A stretch of 64,000 bases of DNA, from positions 1 through 64,000 of IMG/VR virus record IMGVR_UViG_3300031992_000032. One strand, 5' to 3'. This document shows, in pieces, positions 29,460 through 35,524 of this stretch. The notes beneath the pieces were generated by a model. The model was not told the DNA's origin, made no database searches, and was given only the letters and a program-made list of their open reading frames with translations. The first letter of the stretch is position 1; the number at the start of each line of letters is the position of its first letter. The DNA comes from a virus. Its lineage: Duplodnaviria; Caudoviricetes. Both the position numbers and the translations under genes were made by a program.

Positions 29460-29547
29460 TCATCTTCTTCATTTTTTTTATTGATTTTTTATAAAAAAAA
29501 TGTTATAATAATTATAGAAAATAAAAAAGAAAAAGGGGTTGATTGTT

Positions 29548-29985
29548 ATGGGTTATTATAGTGATGTTAAAGTTATTATGTCAAAAGAAGATTGGAAAGA
29601 ATTTAAAGATGGTGTTATAAATGAAAATTTAATTAATCATTTAGGAGAAAAATATAACATAGATTTCAGTCAAATAGATAAATATGAAATAGAACATTTT
29701 TTTGGAACTTGTAGTGTTATTGACCTATCTAATTCAAATGATTTAGTTGTGTTAGCTTGGGAAAGGATAAAATGGAGAGAGTATGATAAAGATTCAATGT
29801 GTTCAGTATTTTGGGCATGGCTTGATGATTTAGAAGAAAGAAATCATTTATTTAATTATATTAGAATTGGTGAAGATTGGGGAGATAATGATACAAGAGA
29901 ATATGATGGCGGCGATTATGATAAGTTTTATGATGATGGCTATGGCAGAATTGAGATAGTAAGAAGCATTGAGGTATTTGATTAA
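29548..29985 (+). CDS. Hypothetical early protein
   Basis: MGYYSDV...YIRIGEDWGD; own promoter. Confidence 0.75.
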   Translation: MGYYSDVKVIMSKEDWKEFKDGVINENLINHLGEKYNIDFSQIDKYEIEHFFGTCSVIDLSNSNDLVVLAWERIKWREYDKDSMCSVFWAWLDDLEERNHLFNYIRIGEDWGDNDTREYDGGDYDKFYDDGYGRIEIVRSIEVFD

Positions 29986-30048
29986 TTTTTGATTTTTTAT
30001 AAAAAAAATGATATAATATATATAGAAAATAAAAAAGGAGATGATTTT

Positions 30049-30342
30049 ATGGCTAAAACAAAAAGTGAGAAAAAAGTTAATAAAATAGTAAAAGCTATAA
30101 ATCGTAGTCTCGAAAAAGATGTCTTTAAAAATAGATTTTGGATTAGACAAGTAAAAAAAGCTAGAGCAGATGGAATTTCTTTTTTTATATTTGAAATGAA
30201 AGATAGGGAAGATCCATCAAGAGATAAGATAATGCATGGCTGGATAGATGAATTTGAAGCTACTATGTTTCGTCAATTAGATATAGAAATAAATAATTTT
30301 ATCGTGACTAGCGATTTTTGGACAAAATATAAAAAAAATTAA
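30049..30342 (+). CDS. Hypothetical early protein
   Basis: Own promoter and SD. Confidence 0.7.
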   Translation: MAKTKSEKKVNKIVKAINRSLEKDVFKNRFWIRQVKKARADGISFFIFEMKDREDPSRDKIMHGWIDEFEATMFRQLDIEINNFIVTSDFWTKYKKN

Positions 30343-30471
30343 TTGATTTTTTTAAAAATAAATGTTATAATATTTATAGAAAATAAAAAAAATTATTTCT
30401 TATTTTCTCCAGCGTCAACTTGATGTAAAAAGAGATTAATTGAAGTATCTAAACGGTTGTATCTTCAATTC

Positions 30472-30519
30472 GGTGCTACCTGAGGCTCGGTAGTTAAATG
30501 TCAAGAGCGATAGACAGCC
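30472..30519 (+). ncRNA. Unknown two-hairpin kissing-loop RNA motif, copy 1 (others at 31795-31839, 32851-32896)
   Basis: GGTG-CTACY..RGTAG-nnAAA-TGTN..NACA-GCC with compensatory changes among three copies. Confidence 0.65.
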
Positions 30520-30833
30520 TGACTAATCTTAATATTAAAGAAACTGATCCAGAGATGGAAAAGAGATAAGCTCGCGCGTGGGTGATGCTACTTAGTTCTT
30601 TTCAGTGGTGCTAAGATATTAAGATTTAACAATTATAATAGATATTAGATTGCTCGACGTAGACTGAGCAATTGGAACGCGAATAACTTATCAAGAAATT
30701 CCTTGATGCCATCTAAAAGAGGAATTGAGAGGTTATTTAAGATATAAGTGGGTAGGATGATGGACACCATTTATATGCCTAGGATTTCGGGTTACTAGGG
30801 TATCTATTAAAATTGACACCTTCGGGTGTCTAT

Positions 30834-30889
30834 GAGAAGCAATTGGAATACCTCCTCGTGGTGCTTCTCGGGTAATGCTAAAAGTCCAA
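30834..30889 (+). ncRNA. Minimal HDV-like (theta-type) self-cleaving ribozyme, copy 1
   Basis: P1 gagaagc/gcttctc, P3 acc-tcctcgt-ggt, P1.1 GG, J4/2 CTAA, P2 ttgga/tccaa. Confidence 0.75.
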
Positions 30890-30979
30890 AAGTGTAGACT
30901 TACACCGCTAAGTCCGTAGTTGCCGCCGTGGGGCGTAGTGCCAGACCGTTAACTGAATAGAATACCACGGATTTTTTAT

Positions 30980-31065
30980 GGGCGGGTTGCCGAGTTGGTC
31001 AAAGGCGGCGGACTGTAACTCCGTTCTCATCGAGTTCGAAGGTTCAAATCCTTCCCCTCCCACCA
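30980..31065 (+). tRNA. tRNA-Tyr(GTA)
   Basis: Cloverleaf, ctGTAac loop, long variable arm, CCA. Confidence 0.9.
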
Positions 31066-31068
31066 TAT

Positions 31069-31155
31069 GGACGAGTGGTGGAATAGGCAGACACACAGGA
31101 CTTAAAATCCTGTGGGAGCAATCTCGTGTGGGTTCAAGTCCCACCTCGTCCACCA
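31069..31155 (+). tRNA. tRNA-Leu(TAA)
   Basis: Cloverleaf, ctTAAaa loop, CCA. Confidence 0.92.
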
Positions 31156-31158
31156 TAT

Positions 31159-31243
31159 GGGCGATTGATGGAATTTGGCAGACATGCTAGACTTAGAATC
31201 TAGTGTCATAGACGTACAGGTTCAAGTCCTGTATCGCCCACCA
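31159..31243 (+). tRNA. tRNA-Leu(TAG)
   Basis: Cloverleaf, ctTAGaa loop, CCA. Confidence 0.92.
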
Positions 31244-31252
31244 TATGAAATT

Positions 31253-31328
31253 GAGGATGTAACTCAGTTGGTAGAGTACAAAACTTTTAATTTTGGAGTC
31301 GAGAGTTCAAGTCTCTCCATCCTCACCA
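31253..31328 (+). tRNA. tRNA-Lys(TTT)
   Basis: Cloverleaf, ctTTTaa loop, CCA. Confidence 0.92.
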
Positions 31329-31341
31329 ATAGAATTTTTAT

Positions 31342-31417
31342 GGGGATTTAGCTCAGCTGGGAGAGCATCTGCCTTACAAGCAGGGGGTCATAGGTTCGAG
31401 CCCTATAGTCCCTACCA
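31342..31417 (+). tRNA. tRNA-Val(TAC)
   Basis: Cloverleaf, ctTACaa loop, CCA. Confidence 0.93.
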
Positions 31418-31420
31418 TAT

Positions 31421-31495
31421 CGCCCGTTGGTCAAGAGGTTAAGACACGACCCTTTCACGGTCGGGACGTGGGTTCAATTCCCGCACGGGTGACCA
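31421..31495 (+). tRNA. tRNA-Glu(TTC)
   Basis: Cloverleaf, ctTTCac loop, CCA. Confidence 0.92.
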
Positions 31496-31501
31496 AAGAA
31501 T

Positions 31502-31734
31502 ATCAATATCATAGATAAATCATAAGTTGAAAAACAGAACTCTGGCTACGTAGAACTTATGGGGCGGAAACGTCAGGAAGTTCAGGGCACTCATTACCTG
31601 AGATGGTAGTTAAAAGATGTTGGCGGCAACAGAGACGAGAATTGTGAAACGGGCGACAGCCTATCTGGGTGAAACTCAAATAATGGTAGAGGAACTTCAA
31701 TAGGGAAATGAACTGAGTTGAAGATGATATTGAT
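31502..31734 (+). ncRNA. rnpB: Circularly permuted minimal B-type RNase P RNA
   Basis: CR-IV (AGATAAAT) and CR-V (ACAGAACTCTGGCT) precede CR-I (AGGAAGTTCAGGGC); P4 with bulged U, P2, P3-GAAA, L5.1 TGAGAT, CR-II/III, L15 GGT and P15.1 all present; ends closed by an 11-bp helix. Confidence 0.85.
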
Positions 31735-31794
31735 TTTTTATAAAAAAAATGTTATAATATATATAGAAAATAAAAAAAGAAATTTAAAAATTTT

Positions 31795-31839
31795 GGTGCT
31801 ACTTACTCTCAGTAGATAAATGTTGGAGAACAAACAGCC
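31795..31839 (+). ncRNA. Kissing-loop motif, copy 2
   Basis: ctact/agtag and tgtt/aaca stems; tctc/gaga loop pairing. Confidence 0.6.
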
Positions 31840-32102
31840 TGTAGTCGAAGGATCGCAAACACCTTCCATTCTTTGGAAAACAGCGTGATGCTGAAAGAAC
31901 AAATGTTCAGCACAAAAATATGTGTGGTTCGAGTGACCTTAAGCTCTCCTTAGTTTAATAAGTTGGAAACAAAGCAGGTAATACGAAAGTATTAGCACGG
32001 AAGCCTGTGCGGCTAGGAGGAAATGCCTAGCATTTATATGCCGATTGTGGGTAGTAGGGTCGCTCCCTATGGCAGGTTCGATTCCTGCAGGCAGCTTTAT
32101 AT

Positions 32103-32177
32103 AGCGGGATGGAGCAGCGGTAGCTCAACAGGCTCATAACCTGAAGGTCGAGGGTTCGAATCCCTCTCTCGCAACCA
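32103..32177 (+). tRNA. tRNA-Met(CAT), initiator-like
   Basis: ctCATaa loop, 1:72 mismatch, CCA. Confidence 0.85.
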
Positions 32178-32238
32178 ACTAGTCGGGTTTGTCTATTTAT
32201 CGTGAAAAAATAGAACGTATAGCTATATAGTATAAAAT

Positions 32239-32329
32239 AGAAATGCTTTCAAAGGTTCGAATCCTTTCCCCTAAAAAGGTGGCAGAGCGGTTAATTGCAC
32301 TAGGACACATGTTCTAGTAAAGCATTTCT
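32239..32329 (+). ncRNA. Circularly permuted tRNA-like RNA (T arm before D arm)
   Basis: agaaatgcttt/aaagcatttct closing helix; aaagg-TTCGAAT-ccttt; tggcagagcggttaattgca D arm; actaggac/gttctagt hairpin. Confidence 0.7.
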
Positions 32330-32332
32330 TTT

Positions 32333-32391
32333 GGAGAACTTGATAGTAACCTCCTCGTGGTGTTCTCTGGATTAAAACTAATAACTATCAA
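32333..32391 (+). ncRNA. Minimal HDV-like (theta-type) ribozyme, copy 2
   Basis: P1 ggagaac/gttctct (G-U at cleavage site), P2 ttgatagt/actatcaa, ACCTCCTCGTGGT core, CTAA. Confidence 0.8.
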
Positions 32392-32395
32392 ATAT

Positions 32396-32471
32396 TGTCC
32401 TTTAGCTCAATGGTTAGAGCAACTGGCTCATAACCAGATGGTTCGGAGTTCAAATCTCTGAAGGACAACCA
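32396..32471 (+). tRNA. tRNA(CAT), elongator Met or Ile2
   Basis: Cloverleaf, ctCATaa loop, CCA. Confidence 0.88.
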
Positions 32472-32476
32472 AAAAT

Positions 32477-32552
32477 TGAGGCATAGCCCAATGGATAGAG
32501 CAACGCCCTTCTAAGGCGTGTGTTACAGGTTCAAGTCCTGTTGCCTCAACCA
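32477..32552 (+). tRNA. tRNA-Arg(TCT)
   Basis: acgcc-ctTCTaa-ggcgt, CCA. Confidence 0.9.
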
Positions 32553-32559
32553 TATAAAT

Positions 32560-32636
32560 TGGGGTGTAGCTCAGCAGGTGGTAGCGAGTGACTGTTAATC
32601 ACTAGGTCGGTGGTTCGAGCCCACTCACCCCAGCCA
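32560..32636 (+). tRNA. tRNA-Asn(GTT)
   Basis: Cloverleaf, ctGTTaa loop, GCCA end. Confidence 0.9.
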
Positions 32637-32850
32637 ATAATTTTTCATTGATTTTTTATAAAAGAAATGTTATAATAATTATAGAAAATAAAAAAAGAGT
32701 TACTTAACTTTCTTAAAAAAGTTAAGTGGTGTATGGTATATAGGATAGTAACCTTTTCTATTGAATAAATAACTTGGCGACTACGGAGATTGGTAGTTGA
32801 CTTTTAGTCTTGTTTTAAGAGGAAATAAGATAGTTCTTATTAAATAATTT

Positions 32851-32896
32851 GGTGCTACCTGAGGCTCGGTAGTCAAATGTGGGAGAACACACAGCC
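32851..32896 (+). ncRNA. Kissing-loop motif, copy 3
   Basis: ctacc/ggtag and tgtg/caca stems. Confidence 0.6.
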
Positions 32897-33098
32897 AATA
32901 AGGATGAATATTTAAGCCTACAGCTTACTTATTCAAGAGATTAAGTAGTCCGAGGGGAGTATTCTGGATTGTAGGAGATGGAAGAAACAAAGGAGGCGAA
33001 CAATCTACCTAAAACTTTTAATATTAAATATATAATATGACGATATTATATATTCAAAGGACGTGAGACATAGATTAGCTACCTATGCAGTCCTTAAT

Positions 33099-33152
33099 GG
33101 AGGACAGCTGAAACACCTCCTCGTGGTGTCCTCTGGGTAACGCTAAGTTTCA
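33099..33152 (+). ncRNA. Minimal HDV-like (theta-type) ribozyme, copy 3
   Basis: P1 ggaggac/gtcctct, P2 tgaaac/gtttca, ACCTCCTCGTGGT core, GCTAA. Confidence 0.8.
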
Positions 33153-33507
33153 AACAATATAGATTTACAATTACCGCCGTAGTGTCAAATACTAATTAAA
33201 TAGAACACTACGGATTTTAATTATAAAATCAAAGAATTAAAAATATATAGTTTCGCCAAAATGATGTAGATTTTGGTCTCTGTTGCAACAACCCTTTCAT
33301 TGTCAGTGGTTGATAAGTGAGGACAAAGACAGAGATAAGTCCTTATTTATCTTAATAAATAATTTTATATTGATTTTTTAATAAAATTATTATATAATAT
33401 ATATAGAAAATAAGAAAAGAAATAATATCGTTTGTATGGTGTAACTCCATATAAAAAAAATTAATAGCTTGCGGAGGTTGAAAAATCCTATTTTCTTATT
33501 TTCTACA

Positions 33508-33705
33508 TAAATTATATATATAAGTACAAGTGCGTTTCCAGTAGTGGAACCTTGGAACCCCTCTATTAGGATAGTGTCTAGAGCGAGTCCTAGTATGGGA
33601 TAGTAGTCTAATATATAACTATGCTAGCAAATGAAGATTAGACAGAGACCGTCTTGGACGGATCGCCAAAAAGCCCAGCAGGCTTGTACTTATATATGTA
33701 ATTTA
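33508..33705 (+). ncRNA. Unidentified ~200-nt structured RNA
   Basis: 23-bp terminal helix (one G-U) enclosing several GC-richer hairpins; no credible ORF. Confidence 0.55.
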
Positions 33706-34160
33706 GATAAAAAAATATAATTGATTTTTTTAAAAATAAATGTTATAATAATTATAGAAAATAAAAAAGAAAAAGTAATAAATATGGCTTAGAGCTTCAC
33801 GTATATGATTTCAACGTTGTGCCATATAAAATAATACAACGTGGAATATTATTCTTGTTGATGGGGGCAACAAGTAAAAGAATACTTCCCCCAAAAAAGA
33901 TTTAATTGTTTTTTATAAAAAATTATGTTATAATTATTATAGAAAATAAAAAAAAGAAATTAAATAATTTCTTTTACCATCCATCTAATTGGAAAAAAGA
34001 TTTAAATAAGAAATCTTCAATATGGTTCTGTTCTTATTAAACATATATCTCGTTAGGGGCTGCGAGTATAAATAAAGAACAGCTGAGCTACCCAGCATAA
34101 TGGTAGCAACTAATTATAAGGGATGCCACCCAAGAAATGGCAGAAAGAGAGGGATTTATT

Positions 34161-34547
34161 ATGGGAGATGTAAATGTAGAAGTAAAGGAGAAAAAAGTAA
34201 CTCAAGTAGAATTTTATGGTATGTTAAGAGAAGTTGTAGAAGATTCAAATGTTGATAACAAAGCTGAATTAATTGATTTCATTGATTCAAGAGTAGCTCT
34301 TATCAAGAATAGAAAACATTCTGAATCAAAAGTAGCTAAAGCAAATGTTGAATTAGCTGAAAAGGTTTATGATTTTCTTGCTAATGCTAATGAAGCTATG
34401 ACTGTAACTGATATCTACAATGGTCTTAAAGATGTTGAAGGTATTACTTCTGCTCAAAAAGTAACTGCTTTAATTAAGAAATTAGGCGACAGAGTAGTTA
34501 AAGTTACTGAAAGCAAAAAGAAAGTAAAATACTCAATTGCTGACTAG
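34161..34547 (+). CDS. Small winged-helix-like DNA-binding protein (paralogue of 40560-40934 and 44376-44747)
   Basis: T..FY, F...R...., M.VT...., QK.TAL...L motifs shared by three genes. Confidence 0.7.
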   Translation: MGDVNVEVKEKKVTQVEFYGMLREVVEDSNVDNKAELIDFIDSRVALIKNRKHSESKVAKANVELAEKVYDFLANANEAMTVTDIYNGLKDVEGITSAQKVTALIKKLGDRVVKVTESKKKVKYSIAD

Positions 34548-34699
34548 TATTAACTAACATATAGAGTATAGAATTAATCAAAGGGAACATAAGGTAATTT
34601 ATGCTCCCTTTGATGCTATTTATTTAAAAATGGTCAGTTTTAAATTTGCGAAGAGTGGGTTTCGTAAATCCGAAAAAATACGGAAAAGGAGTGTTTCAT

Positions 34700-35524
34700 A
34701 TGGGAAGTGGAGAAGTAAATATCATAAGAGAATATATTAAGGAAGTTTACAATCACGAGTTATTAACTGCGGAAAAAGAGAAGGAATTAGCTAAGGAGAA
34801 AAATTATGATGAACTTGTTTCCGCAAATTTAAGATTGGTTATATCAATCGCAAAGAAATATATGAATCGTGGAGTAGCTTTTATGGATTTAATCCAAGAG
34901 GGAAATATCGGTTTGATGGTTGCCGCAGAGAAGTTTGATCCAGATAAAGGATTTAGATTTTCTACATATGCAACATATTGGATACAACAATATATTGGTA
35001 GAGCAGTAGCTAATCAAGCAAGAACAGTTAGAATTCCAATAAATATATATTCAAATATAAGTAAGATGAATGCCGCAATAGAAAAGATATCTAAACTAAC
35101 TGGAGGTACTCCAACAGATGAAGAGCTTTCCGCAGAAATGGGGATAACATTAGAAGAATTAAAGAAGTTAAAATACTATTATCAGACAACAATCTCTTTA
35201 GATGAGTCTATTGATAATGGAGAGGATAAAGATACAACAGTAGGCGATCTTGTTGCAGATAATAATGCGGAAGATCCATATAGAAAAGCTGAAAAGAGTG
35301 CTTTGCAAGATGCGGTTGCCGCATTGCTTGGTAGTTTAAGTGATAAAGAGGCAGATGTTATAAGAAAAAGATTTGGTATTGGAGAAGTTAATCCAATGAC
35401 TCTTGAAGAAATAAGTAAACTATATGGATTAACAAAAGAAAGAATTAGACAAATTGAGAACCAAGCATTAAAGAAATTAAGAAATCCAATTAGAAGTGGT
35501 TCATTAAAAGAATTCCTTGCTTAA
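34700..35524 (+). CDS. RpoD/SigA-like RNA polymerase sigma factor
   Basis: [50 protein letters not shown]...[15 protein letters not shown]. Confidence 0.93.

Follow-up and report, generated by a model that had tools for sequence, protein, structure and literature searches.

Region 30343–34136 of a 64,000-nucleotide (nt) window (the whole stretch analyzed here, i.e., the first 64 kb of the 127,072-bp IMG/VR record IMGVR_UViG_3300031992_000032) belongs to a rumen phage (Caudoviricetes) with a genome of roughly 127 kb, ~29% G+C, and a CheckV completeness of 86%. [quoted passage not shown] What the data show are the elements themselves, the covariation that supports their folds, and the occurrence of such elements in further phages. 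All components of the island are variants of kinds already known; no description was found in the literature searched of their combination, of the modular layout repeated three times, of the 48-nt repeat designated here as motif A, or of the unit-1 RNA.

The first three units of the island share the order of promoter, motif A, variable body, and ribozyme. All tRNAs, ribozyme cores, and motif A copies of the record were restricted to the island, according to a scan of the whole record. The parts list of the original prediction, made from the sequence alone, was confirmed: RNase P-like and HDV-like elements sit among tRNAs in promoter-headed units. Its reading of the region as a promoter-driven, self-processing RNA island was supported for the parts and the layout, but not for the "RNA-only" character; nor was a maturation of the tRNAs by the ribozymes supported. 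It had also proposed a search against Rfam. At gathering thresholds, only the tRNAs matched, so not all segments belong to described families; ROOL, GOLLD, and raiA had no match in the window at these thresholds, nor over the island at E-values up to 10.

Circularly Permuted RNase P-like RNA

31502–31734, + strand, circularly permuted, P1-less, type-B-like RNase P RNA of 233 nt (RF00011 match and covariation)

The match to RF00011 covered positions 31559–31750 (45.6 bits, E-value of 2e-10) and spanned CR-I, P5.1, P15, and P15.1, the specificity domain (S-domain) being mostly deleted. In all six members found, the elements follow each other in the same order: end-helix strand, J18/2, 3′ strand of P2, J2/4, 3′ strand of P4, linker, 5′ strand of P2, P3, and CR-I. 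In the window copy, CR-I with the 5′ strand of P4 is followed by P5, P5.1, a reduced S-domain, P15, P15.1, and an end-helix strand. The linker occupies the place of P1 and consists of 6 nt in the window copy and 6–9 nt across the six members. By its position, the end helix corresponds to P18 with an opened loop, and the RNA is a naturally occurring circular permutation that lacks P1.

The relatives were retrieved by pattern scans. A CR-V string followed by CR-I within 8–38 nt was present at 38 places in IMG/VR, one of which was a true relative (locus L027 of record G001, between two tRNAs). A stricter pattern applied to a metagenome collection gave 41 places, including five true ones: a duplicate of G001, L238, L244, L252, and L256. 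All six members are located in phage tRNA arrays. The P15-loop pattern matched 32 loci in IMG/VR, among which L027 alone was RNase P-like; since no further RNase P-like RNA was obtained, the family is rare in this collection.

The modelled structure comprised the end helix, P2, P4 (pseudoknotted and containing a bulged U), P3, P5, P5.1, a P7-like helix, P15, and P15.1. All 51 pairs were formed in both the window and G001 copies, and 19 of them changed on both sides, compared with 0–2 when the partners were slid by 1–3 columns. The six-sequence alignment, in which two members are cut by contig ends and P3 was left out for its length variation, contained 47 pairs with 98.3% of cells paired; 23 pairs changed on both sides versus 1–4 after sliding, and none of 500 shuffles reached the observed pairing or covariation score. 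P4, formed by the CR-I and CR-V strands, had 8 pairs, 100% paired in 6/6 members, with four covarying and the bulged U kept. The type-B helices were also well preserved: P5.1 (5 pairs, 93% paired, 3 covarying) and P15.1 (6 pairs, 96% paired, 3 covarying). The GGU of the P15 loop, which in RNase P RNA binds the 3′ RCCA of tRNA, and the CR-II/CR-III strings were invariant or nearly so in the members reaching them. The S-domain measured ~60 nt in the window copy and in L252, with the CR-II/CR-III strings retained, and was larger in G001, L238, and L244. The permuted RNase P RNA of the original prediction was therefore borne out by the RF00011 match and by covariation across six members.

RNase P RNA is a universal ribozyme. 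To our knowledge, no natural RNase P RNA with a rotated order and no P1 has been described, and no description of a permuted or phage RNase P RNA was found in a literature search, with subscription journals mostly outside its reach. The available part of a 2024 RNase P review mentions phage-encoded tRNAs and no phage RNase P RNA.

HDV-like Ribozymes

30834–30890, + strand, minimal HDV-like ribozyme 1 (RF02682, 25.6 bits; predicted cut 5′ of G30834)
32333–32391, + strand, minimal HDV-like ribozyme 2 (RF02682, 17.2 bits; drz-agam-1, 17.1)
33099–33152, + strand, minimal HDV-like ribozyme 3 (RF02682, 26.9 bits)

An HDV-like ribozyme had been predicted late in each of the first three units, and three cores with complete, hand-checked folds were identified there. 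As read by hand, all three have a 7-bp P1, a P1.1 of GG, a P3 of ACC/GGU around a 7-nt L3, and a very short P4. In 3/3, J4/2 starts with the putative catalytic C, and position +1 is a G (G30834, G32333, G33099). In ribozyme 1, P1 is formed by 30834–40/30863–69 and P2 by 30843–47/30885–89 (5 bp), P1.1 lies at 30870–71, and C30878 is followed by UAA. Ribozyme 2 has P1 at 32333–39/32362–68 with a G·U pair at the cut site, an 8-bp P2 at 32340–47/32384–91, and C32378 followed by UAA; the corresponding elements of ribozyme 3 are 33099–105/33129–35, 33110–15/33147–52 (6 bp), and C33143, again followed by UAA. The P2 sequences are wholly different among the three ribozymes, yet they pair in each (hand-read). 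The RF02682 model aligned end to end with all three, with P4 missing.

The 13-nt ribozyme core occurred three times in the genome, always in the island. Its 14-mer version was present at 116 places in IMG/VR, of which 13 passed a fold filter. When three ribozymes picked from these 13 were compared with the three from the island, P1 and P3 were 100% paired, and five of the seven P1 pairs changed on both sides. Among the 13 filtered ribozymes, one adjoins a tRNA, and at least 10 lie 3–6 nt after a hairpin (by eye); a ribozyme just after a terminal hairpin therefore looks like a general arrangement.

The cut sites in the island are consistent with this arrangement, being located 3 nt after hairpin 30815–30830, 4 nt after the closing helix of a tRNA mimic, and 3 nt after hairpin 33057–33095 in ribozymes 1, 2, and 3, respectively. 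Ribozyme 2 begins 4 nt 3′ of this mimic and ends 4 nt 5′ of a tRNA-Met. None of the three cut sites has the 3′ end of a canonical tRNA within ±5 nt, and CCA is encoded in 10/10 tRNAs; a maturation of tRNA 3′ ends by the ribozymes was thus not supported. Circular RNAs from ribozyme-flanked units were considered and rejected: among the contig joints listed there was no within-unit back-joint, and RtcB was not found in the record.

According to the available text of Kienbeck et al. (2024; PMC10879173), theta ribozymes are minimal HDV-like ribozymes of gut phages, the tRNA-associated subgroup of which is defined by a tRNA 3′ end within ±5 nt of the cut site, with CCA encoded in 4.5% of theta-associated tRNAs. 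The same text counts 526 occurrences that lack an association with tRNAs; most of them lie in non-coding DNA, and their function is left open there. Judged from their positions, the three island ribozymes would fall with these 526 occurrences; they may already be among the 1753 theta examples reported there in total.

tRNA Genes

30980–31495, + strand, six tRNAs (Tyr-GUA, Leu-UAA, Leu-UAG, Lys-UUU, Val-UAC, Glu-UUC), CCA encoded
32103–32177, + strand, tRNA-Met (CAU)
32396–32636, + strand, three tRNAs: Met-CAU, "Pyl(CUA)" (more likely Arg-UCU), and Asn-GUU
30936–30979, + strand, terminator-like hairpin with a U-run, directly 5′ of tRNA-Tyr (putative terminator)

ARAGORN and Rfam agreed on ten tRNAs, the number originally predicted, and these are the sole tRNAs of the whole record. 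The RF00005 cloverleaf scored above the gathering threshold in 10/10 (53.6–72.3 bits), and CCA is encoded in each. The ten tRNAs read A/U-rich codons. A hairpin with a U-run, similar to that in front of tRNA-Tyr, was also found 3′ of ribozyme 3 (33170–33222).

The tRNA at 32477–32552 was labeled by ARAGORN as "Pyl (CUA)". An amber suppressor was rejected, the drawing of this fold needing a six-level stem with a C·C mismatch. The alternative is the minimum free energy (MFE) fold: with five Watson–Crick pairs, U33 and A37 in a loop of 7 nt, and a variable loop of 5 nt, it gives the anticodon UCU; its anticodon loop is identical to that of tRNA-Arg(UCU) in relative G001. The recoding of TAG was also rejected, since read-through of TAG raises the cover by open reading frames (ORFs) hardly anywhere in the genome (by 0.03–0.08 only). 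Because of the mismatch in the CUA fold, the UCU anticodon of the MFE fold, the G001 loop, and the small TAG gain, this gene probably encodes tRNA-Arg(UCU). Permuted tmRNAs, reported by ARAGORN at lowered thresholds, were rejected as well: they were built from real tRNAs, and the Rfam permuted-tmRNA match (16.8 bits) lay over tRNAs. In relative G003, which has a dispersed array of 30 tRNAs, ARAGORN reported a tRNA with a two-base "anticodon" due to a short anticodon loop (L216, 7482–7556, minus strand).

Motif A

30472–30519, + strand, motif A copy 1 (73.1 bits to the model built from four copies)
31795–31839, + strand, motif A copy 2 (differing from copies 1 and 3 in both bases of the last hairpin-1 pair)
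32851–32896, + strand, motif A copy 3

The original prediction described the same kissing-loop motif near the start of the first three units. The repeated motif was confirmed in three copies, whereas the kissing interaction, with 3–4 possible loop–loop pairs, was unconvincing. Motif A consists of a 5′ GGUGC, a 5-bp hairpin 1, UUAAAUGU, a short hairpin 2, and ACAGCC, the two hairpins being combined with a 3-bp closing helix. Copies 1, 2, and 3 lie 94, 30, and 168 nt from the predicted transcript starts, respectively. In hairpin 2, the fourth pair differs from copy to copy (C-G, U-A, and G-C).

A fourth copy was found in the spacer between tRNA-Arg and tRNA-Ile of an unrelated, complete phage with a higher G+C content (G002). 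It was the single true one among three loci matching the motif A pattern in IMG/VR, the other two being coding. The same pattern matched 20 loci in 185,579 species genomes, all of them coding and none with a 3′ ACAGCC. The motif A model, applied to 90 sources (840,221 bases; of roughly 280 loci), recovered the training copies and one 16-bit match with an E-value of 0.34. No Rfam family matched motif A. It was considered as a pistol ribozyme, described in the available text of PMC4604425 as three stems plus a pseudoknot, and this assignment was rejected: RF02679 had no match at E-values up to 10, and motif A has two hairpins with a 3-bp closing helix. By eye, motif A resembles positions 31597–31661 of the RNase P-like RNA (P5.1 to P7 with the core of the S-domain removed), sharing an 8-mer, a 10-mer, and a 7-mer in order; the motif A model search did not report this resemblance.

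Other Structured RNAs

32240–32328, + strand, permuted tRNA mimic (z of −2.5 for 32178–32332)
31999–32096, + strand, weak tRNA-like piece with a T arm (tRNA-Sec model, 20.2 bits, E-value of 0.23)
30520–30833, + strand, unit-1 body, two helix-closed domains followed by hairpin 30815–30830 plus UAU
31841–32102, + strand, unit-2 body (z of −1.3, not significant)
32897–33098, + strand, unit-3 body, ending in hairpin 33057–33095 plus AAU (z of −2.1)

The clear tRNA mimic (32240–32328) is composed of a 10-bp closing helix, a T arm, a closed acceptor-like hairpin, a D arm, and an 8-bp hairpin with a 4-nt loop. Its order is that of a tRNA beginning at the T arm; the acceptor is closed, and there is no anticodon loop. 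Only its T arm matched the tRNA model. The original prediction spoke of tRNA mimics in the plural; this one was clear, whereas the second (31999–32096) was weak.

The helix-closed domains of unit 1, predicted at about 30526–30626 and 30638–30808, were recovered at ~30525–30627 and ~30631–30812 in both the MFE and centroid folds, with z-scores of −2.7 and −4.0, respectively; the value for the whole 434 nt was −2.24. Negative values were also obtained for unit 4 (33405–33710, −5.1), 33756–33895 (−2.3), the unit-6 leader (−3.5), and 33154–33360 (−3.35), while the stretch 32683–32850 did not differ significantly from shuffled sequences (−1.6). A block of ~35 nt is common to units 1 and 2 (30767–30803 and 32029–32062); three RNA-library contigs end there (30760–30765). 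In blastn comparisons, none of the unit bodies had a relative in G001, G003, or IMG/VR. A blastn search of cultured phages matched 492 records, solely over the tRNAs, and gave no relative of the island.

Hints of Expression and Possible Strain Variants

Five metatranscriptome runs held 9–32% of the sampled words of the island; four of them, from two sheep-gut samples of two studies, were inspected as contigs. Contigs over unit 1, identical to the window except where noted, spanned 30407–30795 in four runs: 30519–30764 (depth of 458.5), 30435–30795 (66.5), 30407–30760 (45.2, one mismatch), 30418–30575 (3.9), and 30559–30765 (3.8). The RNase P-like RNA was covered by contigs 31435–31708 (12.5) and 31425–31691 (5.6), and the stretch from ribozyme 3 to promoter 4 by contig 33108–33387 (14.6). 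Contig 33942–34589 (20.9) begins at the predicted start of promoter 6 and ends in a terminator-like hairpin. Other exact contigs in the same runs had depths of 3–21, and the neighboring genes 3–10. Stretches of the island that no contig covered were given no weight. The contig data hint at the presence of the unit-1 RNA, possibly in high amounts; they are no more than a hint because contig depth cannot rank genes and DNA may occur in RNA libraries. They point to an uncatalogued RNA of ~360–450 nt that may be present in rumen samples.

Two of the contig joints run from 30977 to 33720 and from 33030 to 33947 with three extra letters, the latter in both samples. They suggest strain variants without 30978–33719 (the tRNA/RNase P block) or 33031–33946 (units 3–5). 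Joints running from promoter to promoter (e.g., 29532 to 33750 and 30023 to 33370) were not accepted as real variants and were taken for assembly effects, because they lie in the repeated promoter block.

Promoters and Genomic Setting

30343–30371, + strand, early promoter copy 1 (TTGATT-17-TATAAT, TG-extended; predicted start at ~30378)
31730–31758, + strand, early promoter copy 2 (−35 box overlapping the 3′ end helix of the RNase P-like RNA)
32648–32676, + strand, early promoter copy 3
33370–33398, + strand, early promoter copy 4, heading the strongly folded 300-nt unit 33405–33710
33721–33749, + strand, early promoter copy 5, heading the ~140-nt unit 33756–33895
33906–33934, + strand, early promoter copy 6 (−35 TTGTTT), heading the 196-nt leader 33941–34136 and then ORF 34137–34547
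33511–33540, − strand, seventh promoter-like copy, facing promoter 4 (21-nt block at 33496–33516 with 1 mismatch)
34646–35524, sigma-factor gene, 3′ neighbor of the island

The six strong promoters of the original prediction were confirmed as copies of a 75-nt block (at 30331, 31718, 32636, 33358, 33709, and 33894) with 67–100% identity to the reference copy. They have TTGATT (TTGTTT in the sixth), a 17-nt spacer, and TATAAT, with a TG extension in 5/6 and an almost invariant block directly downstream of the −10 box in all six. The specific 21-nt promoter block occurred 26 times in the window versus 0.88 expected. A generic sigma-70 scan gave 24 sites against 21.2 ± 4.2 in shuffles, i.e., no excess over chance. 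Protein genes at 23.8, 29.5, 30.0, and 35.6 kb are also preceded by the block, as are minus-strand ones at 39.7–47.5 kb. It heads ordinary protein genes on both strands and is therefore the general early promoter of the phage rather than an island-specific one; the units do begin at promoters, as had been proposed, but these belong to a phage-wide early class. Nor do all six drive ORF-less DNA, since the sixth heads an mRNA leader and a 136-aa ORF.

The minus-strand promoter-like copy would yield a transcript antisense to 33405–33503, with ~100 nt then being read from both strands. Downstream of it lies a 32-aa hydrophobic ORF (33352–33450, minus strand) without a family match. The island sits in a rightward-transcribed block of small early genes and ends ~500 bp 5′ of the sigma-factor gene.

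Coding Potential

No credible ORF was found in 30343–34136 under table 11, with TAG read as Q, or under table 4 plus TAG = Q, and none of the eight island frames matched PHROGs or Pfam, while both flanking ORFs matched PHROGs; the protein-free character claimed for the island was thus upheld. In table 11, 30343–33905 lacked tRNA-free plus-strand ORFs of ≥30 aa. The frames that appear once TAG is read as Q, alone or in combination with table 4, begin in promoters or overlap tRNAs. The 136-aa ORF (34137–34547) matches phrog_19455 and starts inside the range originally given for the island (to 34160); its product had no relatives in IMG/VR. The gain in ORF cover with TGA as sense was seen at 0–23 kb and 49.5–127 kb, the early region 23–49.5 kb barely changing; a UCA anticodon was present in 0/10 phage tRNAs.

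Ro60-like Protein and YrlA-like Elements

A 523-aa protein encoded at 111,994–113,565 of the record (minus strand) contains DUF2828 and DUF7788. The 12 best Foldseek matches of its AlphaFold model (pLDDT of 72.4) in PDB were all Ro60/TROVE structures, with E-values from 8e-7 to 6e-4 and TM-scores of 0.35–0.48, and included the Ro60 of a Thermus phage. This protein has more than 7,800 relatives, many of them on contigs of 130–150 kb. On account of it, a Y-RNA-like role for some of the island RNAs is conceivable.

YrlA (RF02553) had no match at E-values up to 10 in 29900–34700 or in 32178–32395. In relative G001, a sub-threshold YrlA match (32.4 bits, E-value of 4e-4; L176, 5198–5304, minus strand) overlapped a tRNA-like match; this element, like that of the window, has the form of a permuted tRNA mimic and a closing helix, and it lies within an array of 23 tRNAs. 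RNAs with the ACAGCAA handle were not seen beside the Ro60-like gene, and the handle was absent from the island.

Proposed Function and Alternative Explanations

From the folds and their order, we infer the catalytic activities, the partner proteins, and the RNA ends of the following scheme. Host-type (sigma-A-like) early promoters would give three long precursors and three short units. The RNase P-like RNA would pair with host RnpA and cut the 5′ leaders of the phage pre-tRNAs; in relatives where a tRNA directly follows it, the same cut would set its own 3′ boundary. The tRNA 3′ ends are presumably left to host enzymes, as CCA is encoded in all ten. The ribozymes, cutting 3–4 nt after a terminal hairpin or closing helix, would release non-tRNA RNAs with hairpin-protected 3′ ends and a 2′,3′-cyclic phosphate, and would separate them from the downstream tRNAs. 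The unit-1 and unit-3 RNAs would be freed in this way, together with a precursor whose last element is the tRNA mimic. Our guess is that they bind proteins, e.g., the Ro60-like protein, or act as decoys. If the phage brings its own RNase P RNA, then 5′ maturation of tRNAs can limit phage growth or is a target of host defence.

Several observations weigh against this scheme. The scores of both ribozyme families are below their gathering thresholds: 17–27 bits versus 44 for RF02682, and 45.6 bits versus 97 for RF00011, the G001 copy (58.8 bits) also being under the latter. In cells, bacterial RNase P RNA depends on the RnpA protein, and no RnpA gene was found in the record (86% complete) or in G001; the host protein would therefore be required, and the RNA-only character of the toolkit in the original prediction was not supported. 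Without P1 and most of the S-domain, the RNase P-like RNA could be inactive or serve another role. Neither TROVE-Pfam nor RtcB had a match in the record or in G001. Relative G003, which was found through a search with the neighboring sigma factor (2 loci), has the same promoter type and 30 tRNAs and gave no RNase P-like or HDV-like match, so the extra RNAs are dispensable for this phage group. The terminator-like hairpin of unit 1 separates ribozyme 1 from six tRNAs that have no promoter of their own, and their expression therefore needs read-through; this hairpin (30936–30979) may be a point of regulated read-through. The RNA evidence consists of contigs, with the limits on depth and on DNA in the libraries given above. 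Three of the unit-1 contigs end at 30760–30765 and one at 30795 rather than at the predicted cut at 30833, and among the contigs listed none ended at a ribozyme cleavage site.

Some of these points are shared with a reading of the RNase P-like RNA as a decoy or regulator, which soaks up host RnpA or competes with host RNase P for pre-tRNAs or for a tRNA-targeting defence, thereby shifting RNA processing in favour of the phage, rather than as a working enzyme. The missing P1, the rotated order, the S-domain of ~60 nt in the window phage and L252, the negative RnpA search, and the RF00011 score would all fit it. We regard it as quite unlikely: the kept and covarying parts are those for catalysis and substrate binding (the bulged U of P4, CR-I, J18/2, J2/4, the P15 GGU, CR-II/CR-III), whereas an RnpA decoy would require the P2–P3–P4 region alone, and neither P15 nor the S-domain. 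Bacterial RNase P RNAs that have been circularly permuted by engineering remain active. It is also unlikely, if worth keeping in view, that the Ro60-like protein has Y-RNA-like partners in the non-tRNA units (the mimic, the unit-1 RNA, and perhaps motif A), the island then being mainly a ribonucleoprotein toolkit for structured or misfolded RNA, with the ribozymes and RNase P just trimming these RNAs. The model of the 523-aa protein matches Ro60/TROVE structures over its full length, including a phage Ro60, the mimic has the order of T arm, closed acceptor, and D arm and the long closing helix of YrlA, and the tRNA array of G001 contains the sub-threshold YrlA match. On the other hand, the YrlA model found nothing in the window, even in the 218-nt search at E-values up to 10, the Ro60-like gene is ~80 kb away from the island RNAs, and the ACAGCAA handle is absent; the mimic's closing helix, a perfect duplex, lacks the bulge to which Ro60 binds in Y RNAs, and the Ro60-like model is of moderate quality (pLDDT of 72, TM-scores of 0.35–0.48). 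A further extension, for which we see only a slight chance, is that the promoter–motif A–body–ribozyme units form a modular system for defined structured RNAs, with motif A as a handle for the permuted RNase P or the Ro60-like protein. Were the handle reading true, RNase P-type recognition would be re-targeted to non-tRNA substrates within a largely self-contained early RNA-processing circuit.

Two further explanations concern the island as a whole. Apart from the tRNAs, it might be mostly junk, i.e., spacer, decayed fragments of tRNA and RNase P, and duplicated promoters. The unit bodies are without blastn-level relatives in G001, G003, and IMG/VR, motif A was found in just one other phage, two stretches fold no better than shuffles (31841–32102, z of −1.3; 32683–32850, z of −1.6), and the contigs suggest variants without 30978–33719 or 33031–33946. 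We consider this very improbable in view of the both-side changes across the six RNase P-like RNAs and the P1 helices of the ribozymes, the preservation of every core nucleotide in 3/3 ribozymes while P1 and P2 differ, and the z-scores of −2.7 to −5.1 for several units; in addition, among phage-specific stretches, the one with the best cover in four metatranscriptome runs belongs to a unit body and not to a gene. The island might instead conceal protein genes read with an unusual code of the phage, TGA apparently being sense in its middle and late genes, where reading through TGA lifts the share covered by ORFs (≥120 aa) from 0.43 to 0.90 at 0–23 kb and from 0.42 to 0.92 at 64–90 kb. Around the island, TGA read-through adds little (0.47 to 0.56); with TAA as the sole stop, the longest island frames (134–154 aa) start in promoters or cross tRNAs and need 5–8 read-throughs, and the eight island frames are without a PHROGs or Pfam match, which makes hidden genes extremely improbable. 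An island of tRNAs and structured non-coding RNAs remains the reading preferred here.

Comparison with Known Systems

Structured RNAs among tRNAs are known from phages T4 (species 1 and 2 RNAs) and T5 (tRNA-like RNAs), where they are made early and cut out by tRNA-processing enzymes. The island differs from them by its own RNase P-like RNA, its ribozymes, and the three-fold layout of promoter, motif, body, and ribozyme. The tRNA mimic shares with YrlA the T arm, the closed acceptor-like hairpin, and the D arm within a long closing helix, and a Ro60-like protein is encoded in the same phage. Unlike YrlA, it has an extra 8-bp hairpin and no match to the model, and the Ro60-like gene is distant.

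The RNase P-like RNA has CR-I/P4 with the bulged U, P2, P3, P5.1, P15.1, the P15 GGU, and CR-II/CR-III in common with type B RNase P RNA (RF00011, Bacillus-type rnpB). It differs in its rotated order, the 3′ elements J18/2, 3′ strand of P2, and 3′ strand of P4 coming first, in the 6–9-nt linker in place of P1, in ending in the would-be P18 loop, and in the reduced S-domain; moreover, it is phage-encoded and lies within a tRNA operon. It would provide a natural minimal scaffold of ~230 nt for the study of this ribozyme.

The island ribozymes align with the Faecalibacterium prausnitzii HDV ribozyme (RF02682) in P1, P3, L3, and the J4/2 string over the whole model, while their P4 is almost absent, 15–19 model positions being reduced to 1–6 nt. 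With theta ribozymes, as far as the available text describes them, they share the minimal HDV-like fold, the very short P4, the L3/P3 core, and the location in a tRNA region of a gut caudovirus. In contrast to the tRNA-associated theta ribozymes of that text, they follow a hairpin, the closing helix of the mimic, and a hairpin, respectively, and their neighboring tRNAs all encode CCA. The island also offers a specific setting for HDV-like ribozymes without a tRNA association, where they would define the 3′ ends of non-coding RNAs terminating in a hairpin.

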